DNA of 64,000 nt, from the IMG/VR virus record IMGVR_UViG_3300034683_000273. One strand, written 5' to 3'. The DNA is from an uncultured virus (IMG/VR IMGVR_UViG_3300034683_000273) (Duplodnaviria > Heunggongvirae > Uroviricota > Caudoviricetes). The notes beneath the pieces are model-generated. The model saw only the letters and a program-made list of their open reading frames with translations, was not told the origin of the DNA and searched no databases. Positions 28,081 through 59,332 of this stretch are shown here, in pieces. The first letter of the stretch is position 1. Each line of letters begins with the position of its first letter. Both the position numbers and the translations under genes were made by a program.

Positions 28081-28308
28081 TTAAACTACCTTTTTAGGCA
28101 ATTCTTCTTCTTCATTTAAAAAGATTGAATCATCCTTTGTTTTGAGCACTTCTTTAATTTTTAATGCAGTCTTAAGTCCTGGTATACATCTTCCAGTTTC
28201 ATAATGTACATAGGAAGTTCTGTCTATCCCTACCTTTTTCGCAACTTGTTCTTGAGTAAGACCAAGCTCTAATCTTCTTTGTTTTAAATTTTTTCTCATG
28301 ATTATCAC
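28081..28308 (-). CDS. Cro-like XRE regulator
   Basis: LTQEQVA..GIDRTSY..YETG; short, heads the leftward early genes. Confidence 0.8.
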   Translation of the reverse strand: MIIMRKNLKQRRLELGLTQEQVAKKVGIDRTSYVHYETGRCIPGLKTALKIKEVLKTKDDSIFLNEEEELPKKVV

Positions 28309-28319
28309 CTCCTTAATTA

Positions 28320-28357
28320 TGTGGGTTATTGTAACTTTTAATAATAAGTGTTATAAT
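28320..28357 (+). promoter_or_regulatory. Sigma-A promoter with operator-like site over -35
   Basis: TTGTAA-17 nt-TATAAT with TG; tgtgggttattgtaact resembles operator at 29427-29443. Confidence 0.7.
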
Positions 28358-28363
28358 TTTCTT

Positions 28364-28730
28364 TGAGCAACTACATTCTTGGGAGGTGGTCACCTTGACC
28401 AACCTTTTGACTAATCTAGTTCCTTAGTGCAAGGCTTCGCCGGGACAAGACCCGTAAAAATGAAAAGCAGTTAATAGAAGCAACACACCAGTTGCCTATA
28501 TCGGCTTAAAACTTGCATCAACATTGCTATTGCTCAATAGCTGAATCACAACTGCTGAAGTATGTGGCAATCCTAAAGAAGCAATGGCCTGTATCGTTGT
28601 ATGTATAGGGTGGTTTGGTATCCATTCTGGAGAGAATGGTAATGCTTGACTTACTCTATCCATTGCAAGATTGTTAGGGTAAAAAACTGTGGCTTATCAG
28701 TAAACGGGTACAGGACCGTTTGCTGATATG
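28364..28730 (+). ncRNA. Candidate large structured RNA with 10-codon leader ORF (28395-28427, MTNLLTNLVP)
   Basis: No long ORF; promoter upstream; many hairpins and nested long-range helices. Confidence 0.55.
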
Positions 28731-28747
28731 GAAACCTGGAGGTTATT

Positions 28748-29134
28748 ATGAAACTAAATCCAGATTGTATTAGAGATATACTTTTGACCATTGAAGCCAA
28801 TACTGGCTATGAGTTATGTTATGAGTATCCAGCTGAAATTAATATATCGCCACTTCTATCAAAATACTCAGATGATGAAATCAGGTACCATATCTTGCAG
28901 TGTTCAAAAACTGGCTTCATAGAGCTTAAACGAGACCTGACAGACAACATGTATGTTAAAGATATCACGCCTTATGGACATGAATTTTTAGCCAATATCC
29001 GTGAAAATAGCGTTTGGAGCCAAACTAAAACTGTTGCTGGCAAAGTAGGATCTAAGTCTTTGGATGCTATTTACAAAATATCTTCTGCCGTTATCGCTGA
29101 AATAATTAAGCAAGCTATCTCTGGAAATATTTAG
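28748..29134 (+). CDS. DUF2513-like winged-helix protein
   Basis: MKLNPDCIRDILL..IRYH..ITP.GHEFLANIR...W. Confidence 0.8.
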   Translation: MKLNPDCIRDILLTIEANTGYELCYEYPAEINISPLLSKYSDDEIRYHILQCSKTGFIELKRDLTDNMYVKDITPYGHEFLANIRENSVWSQTKTVAGKVGSKSLDAIYKISSAVIAEIIKQAISGNI

Positions 29135-29350
29135 TTATACGAGCCAAACATCACACTCAGCTATGAATTTTGCTTCTGCCTTGATAGCTTCTACAATAGC
29201 CCTGTCAAGCTCTTTGTAGGTTTCTAAATGCTCAGTTTTATAGGCGCTGATACAATCTGCTCTGACTGTATCTAGTAGATCATCTCTTAGTTGATTGAGA
29301 AGCTGCATGCGTTTTAAGCAGTTTGCAGATATTAGCGTTTTTTTCGCCAC
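29135..29350 (-). CDS. Small hypothetical protein
   Basis: GGAGGTG RBS; first gene after leftward promoter A. Confidence 0.55.
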   Translation of the reverse strand: MAKKTLISANCLKRMQLLNQLRDDLLDTVRADCISAYKTEHLETYKELDRAIVEAIKAEAKFIAECDVWLV

Positions 29351-29390
29351 CCCATCACCTCCTTCCTGGGGGTTGTTAAAAATAACTATA

Positions 29391-29475
29391 TGTTTTTATA
29401 AATAACATTCTTTATAGATTTATTGTAGTGGGTTTAAATAACATTGTCAATAGTTTTATGTTTATAATAATAACT
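29391..29475. promoter_or_regulatory. Switch A: leftward promoter and three 17-bp operators
   Basis: Minus-strand TTGACA(29450)-17-TACAAT; WGT..AACW sites at 29391, 29427, 29459. Confidence 0.75.
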
Positions 29476-29494
29476 TTTTTTAAGGAGATTTATT

Positions 29495-29839
29495 TTGCTT
29501 ACAGATAAGATCAAATATCTAAGGAAATCAAATGACCTTACACAACAAGAAATGGCTGATATTTTAAAAATCAAAAGGTCTACATATACAAATTATGAAA
29601 GTGGCAAAATACTTCCACCCATAGATAAGCTGGAATTACTTGCTGAACATTTCAAGGTCTCAATAGACTACCTATTAGGCAGAACCGACGACCCAACGCC
29701 TTATAGGGATATAAAAACAACCGAGGACGATTTGCAGATGATTCTTTCTAATCCTGCAATGATAAATGTTGTCAAAAAGCTTTCTTCTCTACCTCCTGAA
29801 AAGTTTGATGCGTTTGTCAAGCTGCTGGAACAATTTTGA
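29495..29839 (+). CDS. XRE repressor A
   Basis: LTQQEMA..RSTYTNYESG..VSIDYLLGRTD. Confidence 0.9.
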   Translation: MLTDKIKYLRKSNDLTQQEMADILKIKRSTYTNYESGKILPPIDKLELLAEHFKVSIDYLLGRTDDPTPYRDIKTTEDDLQMILSNPAMINVVKKLSSLPPEKFDAFVKLLEQF

Positions 29840-30227
29840 TGGTTTCATACTTTCCTCCTTTCCGGGGTTGTTAATTACTTAATTTCAAAATGATACAAGT
29901 CAAAATGTTCCATTTGGAAACTCTTTATATTGCAATTATAGTTTCTTATAGAAACATTGTCAACAAATTTTTGTTTACTTTCGGAACTTTTTTTATGAAG
30001 GATGTACACCTATGATTAATGAACGCTTAAAAAACCTAAGAAAACACTATAATAAAAAGCAAAATGATATCGCTGAATACATTGGTGTTGCTAGGTCTAC
30101 CTATACAAATTATGAAAATGGAAATAAAAATCCACCTTATGAGCAGTTAATTAAAATTGCTGAATTTTATTCTGTCTCCGTAGACTACCTATTAGGCAGA
30201 ACCGACGACCCAACGCCGTATAGGGAT
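29664..30227 (+). repeat. 47-bp direct repeat (1 mismatch) shared by both repressor genes
   Basis: tagactacctattaggcagaaccgacgacccaacgccKtatagggat at 29664-29710 and 30181-30227. Confidence 0.9.
29906..29988. promoter_or_regulatory. Switch B: leftward promoter and three 17-bp operators
   Basis: Minus-strand TTGACA(29963)-17-TATAAT; WGTT-N9-AACW sites at 29906, 29940, 29972. Confidence 0.75.
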
Positions 30228-30401
30228 GTTGACAGTGATTTGAATGGCTCACCTGACGAAGAGCTCAAGCAGCTGCTCAACGATCCAGAGATGAGAGTAG
30301 CTTTTATGGATTACTCTTCCTGGACAGACGAGGACAAAAGGGAGCTGATTAACTTTATTAAGTTTAAAAAGTCTCAAAGAGAGATGAAGGAAAATAAATA
30401 A
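30012..30401 (+). CDS. XRE repressor B (CI/ImmR-like)
   Basis: QNDIA..GVARSTYTNYENG..VSVDYLLGRTD. Confidence 0.9.
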   Translation: MINERLKNLRKHYNKKQNDIAEYIGVARSTYTNYENGNKNPPYEQLIKIAEFYSVSVDYLLGRTDDPTPYRDVDSDLNGSPDEELKQLLNDPEMRVAFMDYSSWTDEDKRELINFIKFKKSQREMKENK

Positions 30402-30461
30402 AACAAGAGGTGTATTATGGGTTTATATTTGTTACATTTATGTAAAAAATAGGCAAATGCA

Positions 30462-30489
30462 TTGACATATAACCTATATGTTATATAAT
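30462..30489 (+). promoter_or_regulatory. TAC operon promoter with palindromic operator
   Basis: TTGACA-16-TATAAT overlapping atataac-N6-gttatat. Confidence 0.75.
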
Positions 30490-30506
30490 GTGATTAGGAG
30501 GAACAC

Positions 30507-30920
30507 TTGGGAATATTAGGTAATATTGTTTATCCAGAAGAATTTAACCACGATAGTATATTAGCCCATCTTAAACAAGAAGATGAATTAAAAATACTAC
30601 TTGAAGACTCCGGACTAAAAACAGCTTTCTTAAAAAGATACAGACAACGACTAAAATTTCTAAGTACTCACTTAGATACTTTTTTTCACAAATCTGAGTG
30701 GTACGAAAGTCTTAAAAACGTAAATAATATGTACTCTATGAAAATCAAAGGTTTAGATAAAAACATTCGAATTTTATTTTGTCTTTGGAAAATAGAAAAC
30801 AGGCAAAAAATAATATTATTAACAACTTTTGAAGAAAAAAAGAGCAGCGATTATAGTAAATATATTGTTATTGCTCAACAAAGAATAGAAGAGTTAGTTA
30901 ATATGGAGGAATTACAATGA
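30507..30920 (+). CDS. RelE/HigB-like toxin
   Basis: ESLK...MYSMKI...NIRILF...IILLTTFEEKK..DY...I..A..R pattern; toxin-first order. Confidence 0.75.
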   Translation: MGILGNIVYPEEFNHDSILAHLKQEDELKILLEDSGLKTAFLKRYRQRLKFLSTHLDTFFHKSEWYESLKNVNNMYSMKIKGLDKNIRILFCLWKIENRQKIILLTTFEEKKSSDYSKYIVIAQQRIEELVNMEELQ

Positions 30921-31279
30921 AAAAAAATTTATTAGTTAATCCCATGGATTGGGTTAACAAAACATTAAATGATGAAGATTTATCTCTAGATGATCTTCTC
31001 TATGATTTATCTGTTGCCATAATTGATTATAGAATCAAAAACAACCTAGACCAAAAATCATTAGCAGCAAAATTGAACGTATCTCAAGCAATGGTATCTA
31101 AATACGAAAGTTGTGAATATAATTTTTCAGTAGAAAAACTGGACGATATAGCAAAAAAACTTGACCTAAAGCTATCTATAAGCCTACAACCTAAAGAATG
31201 TAATGGTAAAGAAGCAGTTAAATCTCATTGGAGTAAATCCCATAATTCTAATTCTAAAGGTAGTGAACATATAGCATGA
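30917..31279 (+). CDS. HigA-like HTH antitoxin with disordered C-terminal tail (ChAD-like)
   Basis: IIDYR..LDQKSLA.KLNVSQAMVSKYES..YNFS; polar tail KSHWSKSHNSNSKGSEHIA; ATGA overlap. Confidence 0.8.
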   Translation: MKKNLLVNPMDWVNKTLNDEDLSLDDLLYDLSVAIIDYRIKNNLDQKSLAAKLNVSQAMVSKYESCEYNFSVEKLDDIAKKLDLKLSISLQPKECNGKEAVKSHWSKSHNSNSKGSEHIA

Positions 31280-31734
31280 TTAAATCAGATGATGTATACG
31301 CAGATTTTCAATATATTTTTCACAGAGTAAAGAATGTTTCTTTTTCGTTTCCACCAGAAAAATGCGATTTAATAGATTGTAACACTGAATATGACTATGA
31401 TTATTTCATTAACGAAGATGCAAAAGATACTCACGAAGGGACAATAACATTAATAATTCGTATTACCGATAATGAAAATGAGATTTTAATGTTTGCAATT
31501 GAAGGTTTTTTTATTGGGAATATGGAAGTTTTAGATAAAGCAGAATTTGTTAAATTTCTCGAGATTAACGGCATAACAACATTAATCCAATTATCAAGAA
31601 GCATTATATTAAGTATGACTTCAAACTTTGGAATAAATAAATCTTTTAAACTTCCAATGATAAATGTGCATCGACTAAATATATTAAAGAACAATAGTTT
31701 AAAACAAAAGGAGAATGAAAACAAGCTAAAATAG
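31276..31734 (+). CDS. SecB-like chaperone
   Basis: I.GFF...NG..L..L.RS.I.SMTS..G...LPMINV SecB-type C-terminus; ATGA overlap. Confidence 0.8.
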   Translation: MIKSDDVYADFQYIFHRVKNVSFSFPPEKCDLIDCNTEYDYDYFINEDAKDTHEGTITLIIRITDNENEILMFAIEGFFIGNMEVLDKAEFVKFLEINGITTLIQLSRSIILSMTSNFGINKSFKLPMINVHRLNILKNNSLKQKENENKLK

Positions 31735-31798
31735 TTTTAAAGGGAATATATCGGGGCGCATTAAAGGAAGGCTTGAAAATATAATTTCACAACAAAAC

Positions 31799-31834
31799 AA
31801 AACCCCATTCATTATTTTTGAGTGGGGTTTTTAT
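31799..31834 (+). terminator. Terminator after TAC operon
   Basis: aaaccccattca/tgagtggggtttt hairpin. Confidence 0.7.
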
Positions 31835-31857
31835 TACAAAATTCACGGAGGATTATT

Positions 31858-32196
31858 ATGAATAAATGTAATTTAAAATATCTAAACGAGAGTTACACTA
31901 TACATGAAGAAAAAAAAGATTTTTTTCATCTTTATAAATTTTATTGTAACCATGAAAACAATGATTTCTATACCCTAGTCTATATTAGCAATCAAGTTAT
32001 GGTTAGTAATAAAATAAAATCAGCTGATTTTATCAAAATAGCTTACGATTTTGCTGTTAATTATATTTCTAATAATCAATTTATAGAAAACCCCGAAGGT
32101 TATTACGAAAAGCAACTTTGGATTAAAAAGTCTAGTGATTACGATTTTAACGAAACAAATGTAGAAGAGTTAGTAATTCCACCTGTCGATTTATAA
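31858..32196 (+). CDS. Hypothetical protein (start refined to ATG with GGAGGA RBS)
   Basis: AT-rich ORF in accessory slot. Confidence 0.55.
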   Translation: MNKCNLKYLNESYTIHEEKKDFFHLYKFYCNHENNDFYTLVYISNQVMVSNKIKSADFIKIAYDFAVNYISNNQFIENPEGYYEKQLWIKKSSDYDFNETNVEELVIPPVDL

Positions 32197-32220
32197 AAAA
32201 TATATCTTAAGGAGAATTTC

Positions 32221-32892
32221 ATGCAAGCATATTATCTGCTAGATTTAGAATATTTTAATGCAACCGATAAAATTATCACAACAACAAATCAGCTTGGTAT
32301 AAAAGACATAACAAATGATCGCTCTAGAACCTTTATAGAAAAGAAAGAAGATCAGTTATTAAAAGGATATATATCTTACAAACTTATTTGCGAAATAAAA
32401 AAACATCAAAAAATACGTCTTTATGAAAATTTTTTTGATGAGTTTATAGAAATAAAAGAAAAAATATTTTATTATGATACGAAAAAATGTATCGGGATTA
32501 TTCGTTCTCCCAAAGAAGTTTATAACCAATTCTGTGCCGACTTTGACTCTTCAACTTCTATTAAATTCAAAAAAGTAGAAACTGATTTCAAATATATAAT
32601 AGAACATAAAAATTCTAAAAACATAGCTGGTATTTGGCTAGGTGAAATACCAGATGTCAATTTAAAAACACTTGGCTTAATCGGTACTCAAATTAATTCA
32701 TCTAATACATATACAGAAATGCTAAATAATGGTGCATCTATTAAAAACATAACAATTATATATAAATATAATAATTCTGACATTAAAATAATGCTAACTT
32801 CTGATGGCGGGATTGTTTTTTATAAACACGAAGAAGAAAGTGTGTCCTTACCTATCATTAATAACATCTATGATAACCTTTTGAAAAAATAA
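32221..32892 (+). CDS. Hypothetical soluble protein, candidate defence component
   Basis: 223 aa, AAGGAG RBS, AT-rich; 3' end overlaps convergent gene. Confidence 0.6.
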   Translation: MQAYYLLDLEYFNATDKIITTTNQLGIKDITNDRSRTFIEKKEDQLLKGYISYKLICEIKKHQKIRLYENFFDEFIEIKEKIFYYDTKKCIGIIRSPKEVYNQFCADFDSSTSIKFKKVETDFKYIIEHKNSKNIAGIWLGEIPDVNLKTLGLIGTQINSSNTYTEMLNNGASIKNITIIYKYNNSDIKIMLTSDGGIVFYKHEEESVSLPIINNIYDNLLKK

Positions 32893-33599
32893 AGCGTTTT
32901 TTCAATATCTTTTTTAATACTTATAATATTATTATTGCTAAAACTTATGTTGTTATTCATTATTTTAATCAAAGTATCATTACTCCCAAAAAAACTAAGT
33001 TTCAAATTCTTTTTATGAAATGGTTTGAACATAATATATACAAAAGGATTACTTATATTGTCTCCTAAATCATCTTTATACTCTATATCTATTTCTATTT
33101 TTTCATCTATAATTTTAGCATCACAGTTTGTAAATGTTTTTGTATATCTCTGAATAATATCGCTTGCAAAATTATAAAATTGCTTCATAGACATTTTCGA
33201 ACTCATTTCTATGTATATATTTTGATTTTCCACATCATATTTAGCTACAAAATATGATGTTTTATCATGTAAAAATTCATACTGATATATATATTCTCCA
33301 AAGTTTTCTCTAATTATCCTACAATCTTCAGTAAAAATACTCATTATTTTTTTAAAATACTTTTCATCAATTTCAGAATTTACAATTATTTTCAACCTAG
33401 TTTTAACATTTTTAGCTTTCCATTTTGCTATCTTTATAAATATATCGGGCTTATAATAAACACGAGTCAAAACGAGTGCTAAAATCGGAATCAATGCATT
33501 TATAAAATTTTGGATTATAGGATTTGTAAATATAGTAATGTTGATAAAAGTTATTGCCGTTACTAACAAAATACTTGATATAGTATAAATATCACACAT
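32868..33599 (-). CDS. Hypothetical protein with two N-terminal TM helices
   Basis: Two hydrophobic segments in the first 45 aa then a globular domain. Confidence 0.6.
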   Translation of the reverse strand: MCDIYTISSILLVTAITFINITIFTNPIIQNFINALIPILALVLTRVYYKPDIFIKIAKWKAKNVKTRLKIIVNSEIDEKYFKKIMSIFTEDCRIIRENFGEYIYQYEFLHDKTSYFVAKYDVENQNIYIEMSSKMSMKQFYNFASDIIQRYTKTFTNCDAKIIDEKIEIDIEYKDDLGDNISNPFVYIMFKPFHKKNLKLSFFGSNDTLIKIMNNNISFSNNNIISIKKDIEKTLYFFKRLS

Positions 33600-33785: not shown

Positions 33786-34295
33786 ATGTATTATAATATG
33801 CTCAAAGAATCTATTTATCTTATAACCGAATATGAACTATTCAGCTTTCCTATCCAACTCCACGAGCTGGAGCAGATCTTCACAGACAAAGGTATTGAAA
33901 CCTTGCTTTCAAAACATATTAAAAAACCTTTTGTTATCTGTGAATCCATATCAATTCCTTATTATTGCTCTTCTAAAGAATATAGAAGCAGCTTATGTCA
34001 TGAAGCAGCTCATTTTCTTTTTCATGACACTAATTCCTTTTTTAAATCCGAAATAATTAACATTAAAAATGAAGCTCAAGCAAATGCCTTTGCTGCTTAT
34101 TTTCTTATGCCTGTATACATATTTGAAGAGTCTTTTAGATATTGTAGCAATGATTATGAGCTTGCCGAGGAATTTGGAGTTACAGAGGAGCTTGTTAGAT
34201 TTAGAAAAAAATTGACACAAGCACTTATTTATGATGGTTACTTTATTAATAATAATTTTGAGGAGGAAAACGAAAATGAAAAGAATGCGGTATAA
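33786..34295 (+). CDS. ImmA/IrrE-family metallopeptidase (antirepressor)
   Basis: HEAAH, E.QANAFAAYFLMP, LAEEFGVT. Confidence 0.9.
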   Translation: MYYNMLKESIYLITEYELFSFPIQLHELEQIFTDKGIETLLSKHIKKPFVICESISIPYYCSSKEYRSSLCHEAAHFLFHDTNSFFKSEIINIKNEAQANAFAAYFLMPVYIFEESFRYCSNDYELAEEFGVTEELVRFRKKLTQALIYDGYFINNNFEEENENEKNAV

Positions 34296-34325: not shown

Positions 34326-35612
34326 ATGGCTGGTCATGTAAGAAAAAGAGGTGGTAACTGGTATTATTCTTTTGAGGCTTCTACTATAGATGGAAAAAGA
34401 AAAAGAATTGAAAGAGTTGGAGGGAGAACTAAAAAAGAAGCAGAAGCTGCACTAAGAAAAGCAATTGAAGAATATAATAATGCAGGAGTATATTTTGAAC
34501 CAAGCGAAATATCTTATGCCGATTATCTTGACTACTGGTTTGAAAATTACGTGAAAATTAATTTAAAATACAACACTCAGCTTGCCTATTTAAATATAAT
34601 TGAAAATCATCTCAAGCCTGACCTTGGAATGTATAAGCTTAAGTCTTTGACCCCAACTGTAATTCAAGAATTTGTTAACAATAAATTTTTACAGGGCTAT
34701 AAAAAAACACATCTTGTTAATATAACATCCACCTTATCCGGTTCTTTGAAGTATGCCGTAATGCCCGGAAAGCTAATTAAGGATAGTCCTGCTAACTATA
34801 TAACTTATCCAAAATATGATCATTCGAAATCCGAAACAAATAGAACGGTCATATCCATCAAGGACTTCACAACAATCACTGACAGATTCAAAGGAACACC
34901 TTACTATTATGCTTTAATGATAGGATTTTATACCGGCTTAAGAATAGGTGAAGTATATGGTCTTACCTGGGATAATATAGATTTAACAAACAAGACTTTG
35001 ACGGTCGAAAAAATTATTTATAAAAGAAATTACGGAGTAGATGTTAGAAAAGTCTTAAAAGAAAAAGGCAAAAAAGAAGAAAAATCTGCCTGGTATTTTG
35101 GCTCAACTAAAACCTATAGCTCTAAGCGAACTATAAAAATCGGAGATGCTTTGATTAAAGATTTAAAAAAATATAGAAAATGGCAGATTGAAAATGAATT
35201 AACCTATGGAGAGTATTATACAAATTACTATTTAAAAGAAGAAAAGGACGAAAAGAACAACATTATCCAACGGATCATACCTGTTGAGAAAAGCGTGCCT
35301 TGTGCTCTGCCTACAGCAAATTTATTAATAAGAAAAGAAAACGGAGAGTTTTCATCTCCAGATTCATTTAAATATGCTTCAAGAGTAATTCATTACGAAT
35401 TAAACCTTGATTTCAATTTCCATTCTTTAAGGCATACTCATGCGACTATGCTAATTGAAAATGGGGCTAACATTAAAGATGTTCAAATAAGATTAGGTCA
35501 TTCAGATATCGAAACAACTTTGAACACTTATACACATCCAACCGAAAAGATGGCAGACCGATCAGTTGAAATTTTTGAGAATGTCATAAATGGGAATTTG
35601 CCAACGAAGTAA
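34326..35612 (+). CDS. int: Tyrosine integrase
   Basis: TGLRIGE, K, FHSLRHTHAT, LGH, TY catalytic motifs; N-terminal arm-binding domain. Confidence 0.95.
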   Translation: MAGHVRKRGGNWYYSFEASTIDGKRKRIERVGGRTKKEAEAALRKAIEEYNNAGVYFEPSEISYADYLDYWFENYVKINLKYNTQLAYLNIIENHLKPDLGMYKLKSLTPTVIQEFVNNKFLQGYKKTHLVNITSTLSGSLKYAVMPGKLIKDSPANYITYPKYDHSKSETNRTVISIKDFTTITDRFKGTPYYYALMIGFYTGLRIGEVYGLTWDNIDLTNKTLTVEKIIYKRNYGVDVRKVLKEKGKKEEKSAWYFGSTKTYSSKRTIKIGDALIKDLKKYRKWQIENELTYGEYYTNYYLKEEKDEKNNIIQRIIPVEKSVPCALPTANLLIRKENGEFSSPDSFKYASRVIHYELNLDFNFHSLRHTHATMLIENGANIKDVQIRLGHSDIETTLNTYTHPTEKMADRSVEIFENVINGNLPTK

Positions 35613-37877: not shown

Positions 37878-39569
37878 TTATCCAAGCAGCTGACGAATTT
37901 TTGCCGTTAGCAGTTCCTTACGCTTTTCGTAGAACTCTTCGAAATTTTCCAATTCGAGAGAAACACCATCCGGGATAAGAGCCTCTTTGTGGAACACCGC
38001 CTTCTGCTCATCATTCATATCGTTATAGTAATCCACAAGACGCATAGCATTCTTGCTGCTGTTACTTCTGCCCTCCAGAAGCTGAAGGTTTGGCAAGCGG
38101 TTTCTGTTGCCACGCCATCTGCGCCAATCATCCATAGATACGGAAATCGGCTTTGTACTGTCAAATCTGTCATAAGGGTGCAGATGGTCTTGCTCATATT
38201 TGAAGTTTTTGTTTATCCAATCAAGACCCAAGAAGTAGAGTGCCTCACCCGCAACACGGCTTCCTTTTTCAGAATTGATAATATCATCAATTTTGCCATC
38301 GGTTACACGCAGGTCATTCATCTGCTCAAGCATATCCACTGTGATTTCATATTCGTTATCATTGATATTGCTCTTCATCTGCTGAAGCTTACTTGTAGTT
38401 CCGGATTGGAAATAGGTGAACAGAACCGCTCTAATCAAGTAGGCTCTGATGCCATCCAGGTTGTTTGCATAATCCGGGTTGTAATACATGAAATAGATAA
38501 TAGGTAACAGCACGTTCCAACTGCTTGAAAAACGGCTGACTTCAATTTTCATATCCTTCAGAAAGGATTCCAGGTTCTTAAGGGTCTTCTTGAAATCCTG
38601 CCAGTTGTTTTTGAGGTCTTCTGCAATCTGCTTATTGATATTGGATTTTACAACATCACCATAAAGCATAAGGGCAGAACGAACGATAAAATCAGAACCA
38701 AATCCGGCATAGGAATCTACGAGCAGTCTTCCGAACTCTGTTTTTGCATTAGGCCAATATGCCTCCAAAATGGACATAGTAATTTCGTGCTTTTTCAAAG
38801 CCTTACCACCGCTGTTGAAACGGACAAACATTTCCAGAGCATCGTCCTGTTTCATATCCTGGATTTCTGTATAGCGGATTAACTTTTCCACAAAAATCTT
38901 GTTATACAGTTTATTGAGGATATCACGAGCATACTCTTTGCTGTCAGCCGGAACATTGGCAATGGCAGACTCGATGGCTTGTTCTCTTGTATTATCATCA
39001 CGGAATTTATCACTGAGAATTTCACGGATTTCAAACTGTGTAGGACTCAGTTTGCCTACCTTCTCAGTAAACTTGATGTCATATTTTTTACTGTTATATT
39101 CTTCCTCGTCAACGGTCAGTTTGTGCTTATTCAGTTCGATAAGCAATTTTACAACCGTGCCACCGACCATCTTTTTTCTTGCGTGTTTTTGTCTGATATA
39201 GGCACGTCCGAAAAGGGATAGAAACAGAGAGGTAAGTCTCTGCTGCCCATCCAGGACTGCCGTATCAGTCATCTTAACATCGATATTGCTTAATTCATAA
39301 TTTACGCTGTCAGCCTGTTTTCTGCTATCAAAGGTAACCTCAGACAGGAAATTACAGAAATAGGTGTCCCAGCTCACATTGTCATCATCTACGTGCCAGA
39401 ACAGAAAAGTGGCGATAGGATAATCCAAAAGAATGGAGTCCCACAGTTTTTCAATCTGTTCCATGCTCCACACATACTGTCTTTGGAATGCAGGCATAAC
39501 ATATTTTCCGTCTTTGATATGCTCAAGAGCCTCATAAATCGTAATGCTGCTATCAATTAAAACGCTCAT
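37878..39569 (-). CDS. GmrSD-like DUF262 + C-terminal HNH-like (DUF1524) protein
   Basis: PAFQRQYVW, LDGQQRLT, F.RFNSGG, DHLHP, NLQLL..N.SK. Confidence 0.9.
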   Translation of the reverse strand: MSVLIDSSITIYEALEHIKDGKYVMPAFQRQYVWSMEQIEKLWDSILLDYPIATFLFWHVDDDNVSWDTYFCNFLSEVTFDSRKQADSVNYELSNIDVKMTDTAVLDGQQRLTSLFLSLFGRAYIRQKHARKKMVGGTVVKLLIELNKHKLTVDEEEYNSKKYDIKFTEKVGKLSPTQFEIREILSDKFRDDNTREQAIESAIANVPADSKEYARDILNKLYNKIFVEKLIRYTEIQDMKQDDALEMFVRFNSGGKALKKHEITMSILEAYWPNAKTEFGRLLVDSYAGFGSDFIVRSALMLYGDVVKSNINKQIAEDLKNNWQDFKKTLKNLESFLKDMKIEVSRFSSSWNVLLPIIYFMYYNPDYANNLDGIRAYLIRAVLFTYFQSGTTSKLQQMKSNINDNEYEITVDMLEQMNDLRVTDGKIDDIINSEKGSRVAGEALYFLGLDWINKNFKYEQDHLHPYDRFDSTKPISVSMDDWRRWRGNRNRLPNLQLLEGRSNSSKNAMRLVDYYNDMNDEQKAVFHKEALIPDGVSLELENFEEFYEKRKELLTAKIRQLLG

Positions 39570-40239: not shown

Positions 40240-41811
40240 TTATCTTCTTACATCCAGGCTTGTGCCGGATTTGAACTCCACCGTAACCTTTTCATCGTAG
40301 ACCGTTATTTTCTCAATCAGTCTGCGTACCAACTGCTCATCGTATTCGGTAATGTTCTGTGTCTGCTCTGCAAGGAACTGCTGCATTTCGCTGATTCGCT
40401 GTTTTATACCTTCTCGTTCAGCACCCTCCACCAGGGCATTCTGCCTTTTCTCACGAAGGTGGTAAATCTCATCTGCGATGCTGTCATAGTTGCCTTTGGT
40501 ATTTGCTACCTTGAGCAGTTCCTTTTGCAGTTCTTCCAAACGGCTGTCAATCTCATCAAGGGGAATGCCGTCTGCACCGGAAAGCACCGACTCCACATTT
40601 TTCTGTAAGGTTTCGTTCACTGTATCCCTTCTGGCAAGTGTCCTGTTGATTGCTCTTATCACAAGGCTTTGAAGTTCAGACTCGTGGATGGCATCGGCAT
40701 CGCAGGTTCCGGGACCTTCCTCCATTCTGGTGCAGCATCGCCATACCACGGATTGCTTTCCTCTGTTGTTCCAGACCACCCTTCGGAAAATCTCCCCGCA
40801 CTTGGAGCAGTACACAATACTGGAAAGTGCGTACTTGCTGCTATAAACACGCTTTTTTCGATTCTTCCCGCTGTGGAGGTTGGCACGTCTTATCATTTCT
40901 TCCTGCACCTGCATATAAAGGTCACGGGGGATAATGGCTTCATGGCTGTTTTCCACATAGTATTGTGGCACCAAGCCATTATTCGGTACACGCTTCTTTT
41001 CCAAAAAGTCCACCGTATAGGTCTTCTGAAGAAGGGCATCACCGATGTATTTTTCGTTTTTTAAGATTTTCTGCAGGGTTTCCGCTCTCCATTTGGTCTT
41101 TCCGGCACCCGTTAAAATGCCGTCAGCCTCTAAGCCTCTGCCAATCTGCTGCAAACTTGCACCCTCAAGGTATTCTCTGAAAATGCGTCTGACCACTACC
41201 GCCTCATCAGGGTCAACAATCAACTGCCCCTTTTCGTCCTTGGTAAAGCCAAGGAAACGGTTGTGGTTCACTGTAATCTGCCCCTGTTGGTATCGGTACT
41301 GAAAACCCAACTTTACATTTTGCGAAAGGGACTGGCTTTCCTGCTGTGCAAGGCTCGCCATAATGGTAAGCAGAACCTCACCCTTGGCATCCATCGTGTT
41401 GATATTTTCCTTCTCAAAATACACGGGGATGTTCTTTTCCTTAAGCTGCCTAATGTATTTCAGGCAGTCAAGGGTGTTTCTTGCGAATCGGCTGATGGAC
41501 TTGGTAACAATCATGTCGATGTTTCCTTCCATAGCCTCATCAATCATACGATTGAACTCCTCACGCTTTTTGGTGTTCGTGCCGGATATTCCATCGTCAG
41601 CAAATATTCCTGCAAACTCCCATTCACGGTTCTTACGGATATAATCGGTGTAATGCTCCACCTGTGCCTCGTAACTGGTAGCCTGCTCATCACTGTCCGT
41701 AGAAACACGGCAATAGGCAGCCACACGTAGTTTTGGTATTTCATTTTCCTTTGCCGTATTGCCGACACGTTTTCGTGCCGGAATTACGGTAATATTCTTA
41801 GTCTGTGCCAT
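40240..41811 (-). CDS. Large serine recombinase
   Basis: [18 protein letters not shown], zinc ribbon, coiled coil. Confidence 0.95.
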
Positions 41812-42232: not shown

Positions 42233-43798
42233 TTACACCACCAACCTTTCCTTTAAATTCAATCCACTTTTCAAATGGAACACTATCTGCTGCCTTGTTT
42301 CCACTGTAATGCTTTCCACAAATGCAAGGAACTTCTCATCCTCAAAGGCGGTCAGCATCTCTCCCTTGGAAGTGAATGCCATCAGATTTTGCAGTTCCTT
42401 CATTCTGACCTTATCGCCGCCAACGAAACTAACCAAATTCTCTTTTTCCGCCCGTAGCTGTTGCTCCTCCGCTATAAGGGCATTGTTTTCTCTGTTGAAA
42501 ACGGCAGGCTCCAAGACCCCAGTTGCCATAAGATTGGTAAGAATCTGCTTTCTGTCGGCGTTTGCTTCGATGCGGATTTCCAATTCCTGAATCCGCAGAA
42601 GTCTGTCCTTATCATCCATCCCTCGCAAGGTACGAAGGAGTGGTTTCAAAATCGTGTTGTGACCGTAGACCAGTTTGTTCATCATGGTCAAGAATGCAAG
42701 TTTAATGCCCTCATCGGAAATATAGAGCATGGAACAATCCGCCTTGCTTTCCAAGTGCGTTGAACAAGTCCACGCCACATAATTTCCGCTCGGCTTGTAG
42801 TGTTGCCTACGCTTAAAGGTGCCGCCACACTCACCGCATTTAATAATGCCGGAGAAACAATATCTGTTTTGATATCGGTAGGTGTCTGTGCCGTTTCCTT
42901 TTTCCATTGCCCTTTGGTCGAGAACCGCACGGACTTTGTCAAAATCCTCATGGCTGATAATCGGCTCATGGTGGTTTTCGCAAAGAAACTTGTCTCTCTC
43001 GCCGTAGTTTCGATGGCGGTTGAAACTGCTGTCACTATAGGTTTTTTGAAAAATCACATCACCCGTATATTTTTCGTTGGTCAGAATACCGTTTACTGAC
43101 CCGGCACCCCATTTTCCGTTTTTCTTGGTGCGAACCCCTCTTTCATTCAGTTCCTTTGCAATTGCGTGGGTACTCTTACCAACAAGGCAGGCTGCAAAGA
43201 TTTCTTTTACGATTTCTGCCTGCTCCGGTATGACTTTCATCTCACCATCTACATTTTCATAACCGTAAGGGGGATAGGCGATAATGAAGGTGCCGTTTTC
43301 AAAGCGTTTTCTGATACTCCATTTTTCATTTTCGGAAATGGAAACCGACTCGCTTTCCGCAAGGCTGCTCAAAATGGAAAGCATCAACTCGCTTTCCATC
43401 GACCCCGTGTTTATATTTTCCTTTTCAAAATAAATGGAAATGCCCAGGTCGGTCAGACTTCGTACCATCTCCAGGCAGTCCGTTGTATTTCGGGCAAATC
43501 GGCTGATGGACTTGGTTATGATAAACTCAATCTTGCCATCCTCACAATCATCAATCATGGAAAGAAGTCCGGCACGGCCGTCTTTCTTAGTACCTGTGAT
43601 GCCCTCGTCATAGTAAAGGCCTACATACTCCCATTCGTCATTAGCACGGATGTATTCTTCGTAGTGGGCCTTTTGTGCCTCAAGGCTAATAATCTGCTCA
43701 TCACTTGCCGTAGACACACGGCAGTAGGCGGCAACCTTAATCTTTTTCTTCTGTAACGGGGTCTCGTTTACCCCGATTTTTGTTATCCTTTTCATCAA
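42233..43798 (-). CDS. Large serine recombinase
   Basis: [23 protein letters not shown] zinc ribbon. Confidence 0.95.
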   Translation of the reverse strand: MMKRITKIGVNETPLQKKKIKVAAYCRVSTASDEQIISLEAQKAHYEEYIRANDEWEYVGLYYDEGITGTKKDGRAGLLSMIDDCEDGKIEFIITKSISRFARNTTDCLEMVRSLTDLGISIYFEKENINTGSMESELMLSILSSLAESESVSISENEKWSIRKRFENGTFIIAYPPYGYENVDGEMKVIPEQAEIVKEIFAACLVGKSTHAIAKELNERGVRTKKNGKWGAGSVNGILTNEKYTGDVIFQKTYSDSSFNRHRNYGERDKFLCENHHEPIISHEDFDKVRAVLDQRAMEKGNGTDTYRYQNRYCFSGIIKCGECGGTFKRRQHYKPSGNYVAWTCSTHLESKADCSMLYISDEGIKLAFLTMMNKLVYGHNTILKPLLRTLRGMDDKDRLLRIQELEIRIEANADRKQILTNLMATGVLEPAVFNRENNALIAEEQQLRAEKENLVSFVGGDKVRMKELQNLMAFTSKGEMLTAFEDEKFLAFVESITVETRQQIVFHLKSGLNLKERLVV

Positions 43799-57394: not shown

Positions 57395-58597
57395 TTAGGC
57401 AGTAGCCATAGTGAGCAGTTTTACTGCTTCAGCAAGTACCAGCTTGCCGTCCACACGCTCCTTGGCAACAAAGCCGACCATACCGTTTCCGGCGAAGAGT
57501 TCCTTGAGTTCCGCAAAGGAACGGGTACCACGGTCACCGATGTTGTAGTAGCTGTAGTCACCGAAGGCAATAGCAGGCATACCTGCAGTGATGACAGGGA
57601 AATAAGGGGAAGTGTACACCTCATAACCCAAGAGTCTGCCAGGTTCTCCCGCCTGCACGGAATCCTGCCAAAGGTAACGGCCGTTCTTGTCAGTCAGCTT
57701 ACGGATGGCTGCCAAAGTCTGGTCGTTGCAGATAAACTTGGCATTCTTACGGTAAGGACGCTTGAGAGAGTACACAAGGTCGATGATTTCATCGGAAGTG
57801 ATTTCTGTTGCAGATGCAGCAGTCACACCGATTTCAGCACCACCTTCGGTAGCAAGCAGACCCAAAGGCTGACCCGTGCCGGTACCGTTGAGGAAGGCAT
57901 CCTCTTCGGCATTTGCCAGAGCCTTAGAGAACTGACGGATGATGTAATTCTCAAGACCGAAGGCGTTGTCATACAGAAGTTCCTCGGTTACCTTAACGGC
58001 AACATGGAGTTTGTGGGCATCCAGGTTGATCTGGGCGAACTTCGCATCACCCCAGGTGAGTTCCTCGCCCTCGTCAATCCATGCAGCCGCAGGCTTGGTG
58101 GCAGCGATGTTGATTTTACGCTCACCGCTTGTAGTGATGGTGTGACCCAGCTTACGGAAGATGTTCTCTTCCTCCAATGCCTCAATCAGGCGGGAATCAT
58201 ACTCTTCGGGTACGAGATAACCACCGTCTGCATCCACGCCCTCCTGGAGAACATTGGATACCTGTCGGAAGTTGGTACGCAGAGCCTTGAGCATACCATC
58301 CTTATAGGCATCGGAAGCACGTCCGGTCTTTTCCTTCTTGCCGTCCATAAGTTTGCCGTTCATAGGCTTTTCAGTGATGGGAGCAGAGGTAGGCTTGGAA
58401 AGCTGGGCATCCATAGCGGACATAGCCTCCATACGCTCAATTTCAGCACCGTAGTCCTGAACCTTCTTCTCCATCTGTGCATAGGTCTTTGCATCCTCAT
58501 CGGAAAGCAGACCGTCCTTGTCGCGCTTGGTTTCCACAAAAGCCTTTGCAGCCTCCCAAGCCTGGTTACGCTTTTCGCGCAGTTCGTTGATAGTCAT
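57395..58597 (-). CDS. Major capsid protein (HK97 fold)
   Basis: GGYLVPEE, ELL.D, G.YLWQ, FGD, RVDG. Confidence 0.95.
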   Translation of the reverse strand: MTINELREKRNQAWEAAKAFVETKRDKDGLLSDEDAKTYAQMEKKVQDYGAEIERMEAMSAMDAQLSKPTSAPITEKPMNGKLMDGKKEKTGRASDAYKDGMLKALRTNFRQVSNVLQEGVDADGGYLVPEEYDSRLIEALEEENIFRKLGHTITTSGERKINIAATKPAAAWIDEGEELTWGDAKFAQINLDAHKLHVAVKVTEELLYDNAFGLENYIIRQFSKALANAEEDAFLNGTGTGQPLGLLATEGGAEIGVTAASATEITSDEIIDLVYSLKRPYRKNAKFICNDQTLAAIRKLTDKNGRYLWQDSVQAGEPGRLLGYEVYTSPYFPVITAGMPAIAFGDYSYYNIGDRGTRSFAELKELFAGNGMVGFVAKERVDGKLVLAEAVKLLTMATA

Positions 58598-58603
58598 AAT
58601 AAA

Positions 58604-59332
58604 TTACCTCCAATTTTTAATAAGATTTAGCCTGTCCATAAGGTCATCGGCTTTGGTTTTTCGGGTTTCTTCGGACTTGATTGCACACTTGGCGGCAACC
58701 TTATCCATAAGGGAATTGACCACATTTGCCTTGGAATAAAGCATAGACACCTGCGGCACTTCCACTTCGTCCGTGGTGGTTCTCTGCATGATTTCATCTG
58801 CAAAGCCAAGTTCCACGGCCTTGTTTGCGTCCATCCATGTTTCAGCGTCCATAAGGTGGGACAGCTTTGTACGGGACAATCCGGTCTTAATCTCATAGGC
58901 ATTGATGATGGAATCCTTGACACTACCGAGCATATCGATGGCTTTCTGCATTTCCGCAGAATCACCGAATGCTACCGTCATAGGATTGTGAATCATCATC
59001 ATGGATACCGGGGACATCAGCACTTTCGTGCCTGCCATCGCAATCACGGATGCTGCGGAGGCAGCGATGCCGTCAATCTTGACCGTGACATTGCCCTTGT
59101 AATCCATCAGCATATTGTAGATCTGGGCTGCCGCCACGCAGTCACCGCCGGGTGAGTTAATCCACACGGTAATGTCACCGGAGCCTGCCATGAGTTCGTC
59201 CTTGAAAAGCTGTGGAGTGACATCATCGTCAAACCAGCTTTCTTCTGCGATTGTTCCGTTCAGAAACAGTGTCCTCGCCTCCGGCATCGTTTCCGTCTGT
59301 GCCTGGTTCTTCCACTTCCAGAACTTCTTCAT
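58604..59332 (-). CDS. ClpP-type prohead protease (start likely MKKFWKW)
   Basis: INSPGG, DGIAASAAS, MIHNP, ETW. Confidence 0.9.
   Translation of the reverse strand: MKKFWKWKNQAQTETMPEARTLFLNGTIAEESWFDDDVTPQLFKDELMAGSGDITVWINSPGGDCVAAAQIYNMLMDYKGNVTVKIDGIAASAASVIAMAGTKVLMSPVSMMMIHNPMTVAFGDSAEMQKAIDMLGSVKDSIINAYEIKTGLSRTKLSHLMDAETWMDANKAVELGFADEIMQRTTTDEVEVPQVSMLYSKANVVNSLMDKVAAKCAIKSEETRKTKADDLMDRLNLIKNWR

Follow-up and report, generated by a model that had tools for sequence, protein, structure and literature searches.

Two homologous repressor cassettes in tandem suggest stacked immunity modules in the lysogeny region of an uncultured temperate phage

Why should the lysogeny region of a single prophage carry two homologous repressor cassettes, one directly behind the other? 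The question is raised by IMGVR_UViG_3300034683_000273, an uncultured member of the Caudoviricetes whose record of 64,000 nucleotides is here called the window. The window comes from an environmental metagenome and contains, from position 1 to about 35612, a prophage of low G+C content (GC, ~0.35). Structural, replication and early genes occupy the minus strand of this prophage as far as 29350, where a plus-strand lysogeny block begins in the order xreA, xreB, a Gp49/HigB-like open reading frame (ORF) with a helix-turn-helix (HTH) partner, several ORFs of very low GC, an ImmA-like M78 metalloprotease and a tyrosine integrase. The tandem region itself is small, about 1.1 kb. The reading favoured here, with a probability of roughly 0.55, is that it represents the lysis–lysogeny region of a temperate phage, low in GC and of ImmR/ImmA type in its layout, in which recombination has stacked two immunity modules of differing specificity that would together hold double immunity.

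Cassette A (29351–29839) and cassette B (29840–30401) are homologous and align position for position. Each comprises a leader with a ribosome site, 15-bp operators of which three match in position between the cassettes, a leftward promoter close to consensus and an XRE gene encoding the recognition helix RSTYTNYE, and the two tandem cassettes with their leaders, leftward promoters and RSTYTNYE genes are thus present where an earlier note on this DNA had placed them. The leader is marked by two motifs found nowhere else in the window, CCTCCTTYCYGGGG at 29358 and 29854 and GGGGTTGTTAA at 29369 and 29864, each occurring twice against 0.03 occurrences expected, a count that 0 of 100 shuffles reach. 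On the minus strand, the motif corresponds to the Shine-Dalgarno region and 5′ untranslated region (UTR) of a leftward gene. In cassette A the leader (29358–29379, minus strand) supplies the Shine-Dalgarno sequence GGAGG and the conserved 5′ UTR of L71, a 71-amino-acid leftward gene (29135–29350, minus strand) served by the leftward promoter PL(A). In cassette B the corresponding leader (29854–29874, minus strand) is an orphan Shine-Dalgarno sequence and 5′ UTR. For the leftward transcripts a structured leader RNA was considered and dropped, since shuffled sequence folds just as well as their leaders do (z −0.15 to −0.61).

Operators and promoters are closely interleaved in both cassettes. In cassette A, PL(A) (29422–29450, minus strand) reads TTGACA-17-TACAAT from 29450 to 29422 and matches consensus at 11 of 12 positions, while the rightward promoter PR(A) (29444–29471, plus strand), TTGTCA-16-AATAAT, matches at 10 of 12 and overlaps the −35 box of PL(A) with its own. 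The A-type operator OA1 (29392–29406) lies downstream of the PL(A) start, OA2 (29428–29442; GTGGGTTTAAATAAC), with a degenerate left half, lies in the PL(A) spacer, and the A-type operator OA3 (29460–29474) extends across the PR(A) −10 box. A further A-type site, OA0 (29372–29386; GTTGTTAAAAATAAC), has no positional match in cassette B. The A pattern, GTTKW-N5-ATAAC, matches at 29372, 29392 and 29460; the 36/32 spacing belongs to the sites at 29392, 29428 and 29460, which share the right half ATAAC and have weaker left halves, and the heptamer AAATAAC is repeated at 29380, 29400 and 29436.

In cassette B, the leftward promoter PL(B) (29935–29963, minus strand) is a TTGACA-17-TATAAT sequence running from 29963 to 29935, matches consensus at 12 of 12 positions and is directed into xreA. 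It is conserved in L001, a related IMG/VR prophage that serves below as the main comparison. The B-type operators OB1 (29907–29921; GTTCCATTTGGAAAC; conserved in L001), OB2 (29941–29955; GTTTCTTATAGAAAC) and OB3 (29973–29987; GTTTACTTTCGGAAC; identical in L001) are good palindromes of the pattern GTTYM-N5-GRAAC, beginning at 29907, 29941 and 29973 with a spacing of 34/32, OB2 being a perfect palindrome within the PL(B) spacer and the positional counterpart of OA2. In the window this pattern has 9 strand-matches where 0.91 would be expected, a number attained in none of 100 shuffles. The remaining palindromes of this pattern, at 57508–57522 and 59253–59267, lie inside the capsid and portal genes of a second prophage and are probably chance matches. 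A candidate rightward promoter, PR(B) (29914–29942, plus strand), TTGGAA-17-TATAGT, has both hexamers identical in L001.

PL(A) and PL(B) rank as the best promoter-like sequences of the minus strand. The middle operator of each cassette fills the 17-nt spacer of that cassette's leftward promoter exactly, and in both cassettes promoter-like consensus matches on both strands overlap the operators, as in the divergent promoters of a CI/Cro-type switch. The HTH regulator that forms the first lytic-side gene of a CI/Cro or CI/MOR switch is not found here, L71 lacking an HTH and cassette B lacking a leftward gene. With regard to the operators, the earlier note had described three 17-bp sites per cassette at spacings of 36/32 and 34/32; the positions hold, the pattern found here spans 15 bp rather than 17, and the fourth A site at 29372 had not been listed. 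The difference in inner bases that it had noticed between the cassettes is likewise found, as an ATAAC half-site in A versus GRAAC in B, and this change affects all three positionally matching operators together.

The two repressor genes are intact, each with a Shine-Dalgarno sequence and promoter-like sites. The first, xreA (29495–29839, plus strand), begins with TTG and encodes 114 amino acids; the second, xreB (30012–30401, plus strand), encodes an ImmR-like protein of 129 amino acids. Their products are 45% identical (E 1e-29), with 23 of 57 positions identical in the HTH heads, and both match HTH_3 (PF01381) well above the cut-off of 23 bits, XRE-A at 58.9 bits (E 5e-16) and XRE-B at 58.0 bits (E 1e-15). 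Neither reaches the curated cut-off of 80 bits for the RstR family (NCBIfam NF041951), scoring 67.5 and 72.8 bits, respectively. XRE-B additionally matches the HTH of ICEBs1 ImmR (7t8i; E 5.8e-8) over residues 2–63, that is, over the DNA-binding domain only. The structure models of both repressors share one layout, comprising the HTH (residues 1–60 in XRE-A), a flexible linker and three short helices.

The origin of the pair becomes clearer in comparison with L001, whose genes are arranged alike: first a cro-like HTH gene, then a DUF2513-like one on the other strand, a short leftward gene, a repressor, accessory genes, ImmA and an integrase, with the same split between repressor and ImmA as in the window. 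L001 possesses one cassette, of B type, with three B-type operators, both PL(B) hexamers and the candidate PR(B) hexamers. Its repressor HTH is identical to B at 52 of 57 positions and to A at 24 of 57, a relation that fits B and L001 sharing operators and A differing. In a blastn comparison, the window matches L001 at 75.7% identity over 29854–30359, starting exactly at the B ribosome site, and then again leftward at 28190–28360 (69.8%). Between these flanks only 33 nt of recognition-helix codons match, leaving a segment of 1.5 kb (28361–29853) without an L001 nucleotide counterpart that holds the FuFi-1 RNA, the DUF2513 gene, L71, switch A and xreA. The pattern extends to the proteins: identity to L001 is 69% for XRE-B, 67% for the Xis-like protein, 66% for ImmA, 57% for the cro-like HTH protein and 54% for a 149-amino-acid HTH protein, the DUF2513 protein has no hit in L001, and L71 shares only 31% with its positional counterpart there. 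Because L001 has B alone and the nucleotide homology starts at 29854, cassette B is, on this comparison, the resident switch, orthologous to the single switch of L001, and the segment 28361–29853 including cassette A looks imported from elsewhere. The duplication put forward in the earlier note is disfavoured by the same two facts, namely the start of homology at the B ribosome site and the position of the A module within 1.5 kb that L001 lacks. Its alternative suggestion that two immunities are held is the one that the comparison favours, B corresponding to the sole switch of L001 and A having a distinct half-site at three matching operators.

The same junction offers an explanation for a small ORF of 19 codons (29848 to 29792, with its stop at 29791–29789; minus strand) lying antisense to the 3′ end of xreA. 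The earlier note had reported this ORF with its ribosome site and a promoter B aimed antisense at repressor A, and both are in place, GGAGG standing 5 nt upstream of the ORF. Most simply, it would be a leftover translation start, a by-product of stacking, because only its ribosome site lies inside the L001-homologous stretch and its body is the antisense of the last 16 codons of xreA. A derivation of the xreA tail by overprinting, from the antisense strand of a remnant leftward gene, was rejected, no similarity being found in a 261-nt target (best E 0.17).

A second mark of recombination lies within the repressor genes. At the DNA level xreA and xreB are about 50–57% identical, except in the recognition-helix codons and in the codons for DYLLGRTDDPTPYRD, where the synonymous positions are identical too. 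The latter constitute a linker repeat, copy 1 at 29664–29710 and copy 2 at 30181–30227 (both plus strand), identical at 46 of 47 nt with an exact match of 37 nt; the codons of L001 differ at this stretch. The linker divides the HTH head from the C-terminal part and is disordered or flexible in both models. Other proteins show these parts in other combinations. The C-terminal module of xreB is kept in loci L001–L006 behind very different heads. Moreover, three proteins (P0002, P0004 and P0031) join an A-type HTH (identical to A at 43/57 and 30/38 positions) to a B-type tail (identical to B at 45/57 and 50/57), and every known protein with an A-type head except that of the window has a B tail. 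In run X5, from another study, a 295-nt contig carries the xreB tail (5 differences in 240 nt) joined inside the linker to a different upstream sequence, its 30 printed letters translating in the xreB frame as K-Y-F-N-V-S-S-D-F. Because B tails follow varied heads, chimeras exist and the X5 contig switches inside the linker, the linker is a natural recombination joint and marks a hotspot, and heads and tails have separate histories. P0031 is encoded on 8 contigs; its longest contig and that of P0033, a homologue of L71, both measure 88,140 bp, which hints that the two lie together, and a second L71 homologue, P0028, has a longest contig of 47,651 bp.

Whether the operators follow the recognition helix was examined in 80 metagenome loci encoding proteins with the same helix; these yield 20 different proteins, falling into roughly three groups by sequence. 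For 17 of the 20 RSTYTNYE-type proteins, that of L001 included, the 230 bp upstream contain one or more GTT-N9-AAC 15-mers, against a background of 0.075 per 230 bp in the surveyed loci; GTTGCAAAATGAAAC, GTTTCAAAAAGAAAC and GTTTATAATGTAAAC are examples. Such 15-mers evidently belong to the RSTYTNYE type of HTH, the outer GTT/AAC appearing to track the helix and the inner bases differing by group. Similar promoter cores also occur outside this group of repressors. The 34-nt promoter/operator cores of the window (29934–29967 and 29433–29466) have matches with 4 mismatches in unrelated contigs of runs X1, X3 and X4, one of them a 5.8-kb contig at depth 248, so that other, more abundant elements in the samples must use a similar core. 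In viral contigs the promoter-core pattern is found in the L001 contig and in three unrelated loci, one of which, L097, has a similar core beside a different type of repressor.

Taken together, these features can be arranged into a sequence of events. An L001-like phage would have exchanged the segment carrying DUF2513 and the leftward gene with a more distant relative. The incoming 1.5-kb piece, carrying the donor's switch and repressor A, would have recombined in immediately to the left of the ribosome site of the resident switch, replacing the resident leftward gene and overshooting by one repressor gene, an overshoot that would have cost PL(B) its own gene and left it with the ribosome site alone. 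Each repressor would then bind its own 15-bp sites, probably as a dimer, A recognising GTTnn-N5-ATAAC and B recognising GTTYM-N5-GRAAC. On OA1–OA3, and perhaps OA0, A would shut PL(A), which serves L71 and beyond, and would limit its own promoter PR(A) through OA3; since both leftward promoters have an operator in their spacer, A would be the repressor in control of the promoter serving the leftward unit. On OB1–OB3, B would shut the orphan PL(B) and regulate its own candidate promoter, and read-through from PR(A) could likewise transcribe xreB, because no terminator-like site is seen between xreA and xreB. With both proteins made, a lysogen would have immunity to phages of either type, and the phage's own leftward promoter would no longer respond to B.

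The stacked state would probably be transient, as recombination between the linker copies would delete 517 bp and leave beside switch A only one repressor, a chimera of A head and B tail, which is the architecture of P0031. Induction could follow one of three routes. A single ImmA might cut both repressors at their shared linker; alternatively, it might cut only B, its co-inherited partner, after which PL(B) would fire through xreA into L71; or A might never be removed, so that the prophage would be poorly inducible until the stack collapses. The disordered linker in both models, and the presence of ImmA homologues alongside B-type tails in three (L001, L004 and L006) of the six loci L001–L006, hint only indirectly at cleavage of a repressor by ImmA. 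The stack might even serve as an asymmetric working device, a stage of immunity switching caught in progress, in which the leftward promoter under A escapes B-type immunity, lysogens exclude B-type relatives through B as well as A-type phages, PL(B) relays induction from B to A, and linker collapse keeps the new immunity and restores direct ImmA control, as P0002, P0004 and P0031 would illustrate, an elaboration that we regard as rather unlikely.

Several observations weigh against the stacking of two functional immunities. The recognition helix is identical in A and B, which would allow cross-binding between the two switches. The A operators are poor palindromes with varying left halves and a half-degenerate OA2, and the A pattern was derived from its own sites, its window-wide count not being significant (3 of 100 shuffles reach 3). 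PR(B) matches the promoter consensus at 9 of 12 positions only. The C-terminal part of xreA has no relative but itself among 5.8 billion proteins and a weak likeness to B-type tails (E 0.002 in a comparison of nine sequences), and repressor A could be impaired by this orphan part. The leftward promoters directly serve L71 only, which converges on the plus-strand DUF2513 gene, so that to equate them with the lytic promoter named in the earlier note would be an assumption. L001 is a relative at 55–70%, and which switch is called resident and which imported depends on this one comparison. The same structure would also result from a deletion between two tandem prophages, but not from duplication in place. 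Finally, apart from low-depth fragments of the arrangement in runs of a second study, the tandem comes from one phage and one study. Its rarity, too, is drawn from short and often redundant loci with far fewer independent lineages (52 of the metagenome loci represent one identical N-terminal sequence): two adjacent XRE-A/B-like ORFs occur in 0 of 93 viral or genome loci (6 xreB relatives, 7 weak matches and 80 DUF2513 loci) and in 0 of 80 metagenome loci, of which 79 have exactly one such ORF and 1 has none. Among these loci, L033 has two hits 2 kb apart, and the second hit in L001 is the cro-like gene on the other strand.

Four other explanations compete with stacking. An assembly artefact, in which two strain variants were merged at the 37-nt repeat, is suggested by the metagenome source and by the de Bruijn graph of the Logan contigs in run X1, which breaks only at this repeat. 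In that run, a 540-nt middle contig (29671–30210) starts and ends in the repeat at a depth of 16.3, against 19.3 on the left and 21.3 on the right, and the repeat node itself stands at 41.3; this roughly doubled depth fits a true tandem, the only path that places the middle piece, although run X1 may be the window's own sample and the depths are then a matter of consistency rather than independent support. An artefact is accordingly scarcely credible. An old in-place tandem duplication, followed by divergence of repressors and operators and by loss of a copy in relatives such as L001, would account for the homology of the cassettes over their whole length, leader included, but it is very improbable: the B DNA is 76% identical to L001 and about 50–57% identical to A, the L001 homology begins exactly at the B ribosome site, the leftward gene beside A is only 31% identical to its L001 counterpart, and L001 would have needed both a precise deletion of cassette A and the recovery of a full leftward gene beside B. 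In a further alternative, the stack would be a recent recombination scar with one repressor unexpressed or inactive, most probably A because of its orphan tail, or else B because of its weak promoter, and the locus would behave like any single switch until one copy is lost; we consider this unlikely. The reading draws on the uniqueness of the arrangement, on the A tail without relatives (pLDDT, the model's per-residue confidence, is low, 51–62 over residues 71–110), on the weak PR(B), and on the deletion route offered by the 37-nt repeat, given that proteins of the collapsed architecture exist; the depth of the X1 middle contig, 16.3 against 19.3 and 21.3, would allow a minority of collapsed genomes, within noise. 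Both ORFs are nevertheless intact with good ribosome sites, as are the six principal operators and both leftward promoters. A dead A would leave PL(A) unrepressed and lysogeny unstable, a dead B would leave a consensus promoter firing constitutively into xreA, and the 46/47 identity of the linker copies suggests exchange while both were present.

A two-tier relay, the cascade put forward in the earlier note, fits the same geometry. ImmA would remove B, its partner at the top of the relay, whereupon PL(B) would fire antisense through xreA, lower A by interference or antisense RNA, and read into L71 and the leftward unit. PL(B), with its 12/12 match and OB2 in the spacer, converges on PR(A) (10/12) over ~450 bp containing all of xreA, and no terminator-like site is seen on the minus strand between PL(B) and L71. 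Moreover, the B tail co-occurs with ImmA in 3 of 6 loci, while A, with its orphan tail, may escape cleavage by ImmA and would then depend on such a relay; known A-type heads other than that of the window all have a B tail. A recombination accident, however, explains the layout without selection, the arrangement is unique among the loci examined and shows no sign of maintenance, and A and B share a 15-residue linker after the HTH at which ImmA might cut both directly, making a relay needless. We therefore consider the relay unlikely, somewhat more so than a scar with a dead tier. The stacking of two immunity modules by recombination remains the preferred reading.

The preferred reading can be placed among known systems. 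The lambdoid imm434 and imm21 hybrids are exchanged immunity regions. In the heteroimmune phages P2, P2 Hy dis and WPhi, a repressor identity of 43–63% goes with changed operators (PMC1904268). The window resembles such exchange in that repressor and operators travel as one module between related phages, and differs from it in that the incoming module is added beside the resident one instead of replacing it, leaving an orphan promoter and ribosome site behind. Immunity-region exchange between heteroimmune relatives is thus known, and addition instead of replacement is what is unusual here. A close relative in layout is the ImmR/ImmA module of ICEBs1 and of many Gram-positive temperate phages; in ICEBs1, immR, immA and int form an operon and ImmA cleaves ImmR (PMC8767453). 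As there, an XRE repressor with an ImmR-related HTH is followed on the same strand by an M78 protease with a HEXXH motif and by an integrase; unlike ICEBs1, the window has two tandem repressors with their own operators for one protease, and repressor and protease do not form an adjacent operon, 3.4 kb of accessory genes lying between them.

One protease acting on more than one repressor has a precedent in Listeria MpaR, where an ImmA-like protease controls several CI-like repressors and cleaves them at a shared region after the HTH, at A74/H75 (PMC6872733). The window shares with that system a single metalloprotease, more than one repressor and a conserved stretch just after the HTH. The Listeria repressors reside in separate elements, in contrast to the one switch region here, and the shared DYLLGRTDDPTPYRD differs from the cleaved region and is not a known cleavage site. 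A strong promoter facing the promoter of a repressor gene, which permits transcriptional interference, is also seen in the convergent-promoter switch formed by pR and pL of coliphage 186. The Pe/Pc pair of P2 is another (PMC1904263). In those phages convergence is the core of one switch, whereas here it is secondary, involving promoters of two switches ~450 bp apart. The CI/MOR switch of TP901-1 is compact as well (<1 kb), has divergent promoters and encodes a small protein on the lytic side (PMC7250872). These features are common to both; a difference is that L71 has no detectable HTH or Pfam family. In the literature, no description of a tandem heteroimmune switch was found, which does not prove that none exists; a source on two repressors (PMC9934374) deals with tandemly integrated mycobacterial prophages and not with a tandem switch.

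A route to new immunity specificity that does not lose the link to induction is usually inferred from its end products, and this locus is a plausible intermediate, showing the old and new switch side by side, a sharp junction, a recombination-prone linker and natural proteins with the head–tail combination expected of collapse. If both repressors are active, the host would be protected against two groups of relatives and the prophage would be insensitive to one of them, which matters for competition between prophages; if one tier is dead, the locus would be an ordinary mosaic scar.

Searches for relatives of the individual parts gave further detail. XRE-A is rare: its closest relative among 5.8 billion proteins is 57% identical, and it has no match in viral contigs. 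Among the sequencing runs listed as containing the stretch, none is of RNA. The matches of XRE-A in a collection of one genome per species span 22–57 residues, in Chloroflexi and one Rhodobacterales metagenome-assembled genome, and are not relatives of the module. A tblastn search with XRE-B hit 508 of 50,697 phage records, all at <60% identity; in Brevibacillus phage Emery, examined for its two matches, the XRE genes are separated by 2 kb containing other genes and do not form a tandem switch. The best score for the B tail in a Protein Atlas look-up was 0.88, below the usable mark, and a blastn search with 29100–30520 found no match in the same phage records. L71 matches no Pfam or NCBIfam family and no HTH, only phrog_13038 (unknown function; E 5e-4). 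It shows 72–80% identity to three further clusters, no match by tblastn against phages and none in viral contigs, where its homologue P0032 yields one spurious 20-residue match. A complex prediction for XRE-A and L71 scored 0.00 and speaks neither for nor against binding.

The remainder of the lysogeny block follows at some distance. From the end of xreB at 30401 to the start of immA at 33786 there are 3.4 kb with seven ORFs, of which that at 32868–33599 lies on the minus strand, and with a consensus promoter at 30462. The ImmA-like M78 metalloprotease (33786–34295, plus strand), the only copy in the prophage and the protein that is 66% identical to its L001 counterpart, contains HEAAH and matches PF06114 (E 3.7e-14) and phrog_87 ('metallo-protease'; E 1.1e-17). 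The tyrosine integrase (34326–35612, plus strand) closes the lysogeny module. The promoter at 30462–30489 (plus strand), TTGACA-16-TATAAT, matches consensus at 12 of 12 positions, and its spacer is a near-perfect palindrome, ATATAAC-N6-GTTATAT (30467–30486). Downstream of it, a Gp49/HigB-like ORF of 137 amino acids (PF05973, below cut-off) overlaps an HTH ORF of 120 amino acids, and this pair (30462–31279, plus strand) looks like a self-regulated toxin–antitoxin system within the lysogeny block. Between the repressors and ImmA, 31276–33599 contains four or five ORFs with a GC of 0.245–0.29, one on the opposite strand, which match no Pfam or PADLOC family and are probably accessory cargo genes.

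Two Rfam RNAs lie within the prophage. The FuFi-1 RNA (Rfam RF02986; 28519–28729, plus strand), inside the segment without an L001 counterpart, scores 82.8 bits against a gathering score of 59.6 (E 4.4e-16); it stands directly 5′ of the DUF2513 gene and is faced by a TG-extended promoter-like site at 28329–28357. A GP20-b cis-regulatory RNA (Rfam RF03003; 12828–12887, minus strand) lies in the structural-gene region (55.6 bits, E 1.4e-9). Between the two prophages of the window, a GmrSD-N/DUF262 protein (37878–39569, minus strand) matches the PADLOC defence candidate HEC-05 (E 7e-105). The second prophage (40240–64000; GC 0.45–0.50) carries amidase-LysM lysin, tail, capsid, portal and terminase genes, together with two adjacent large serine recombinases at 40240–41811 and 42233–43798.

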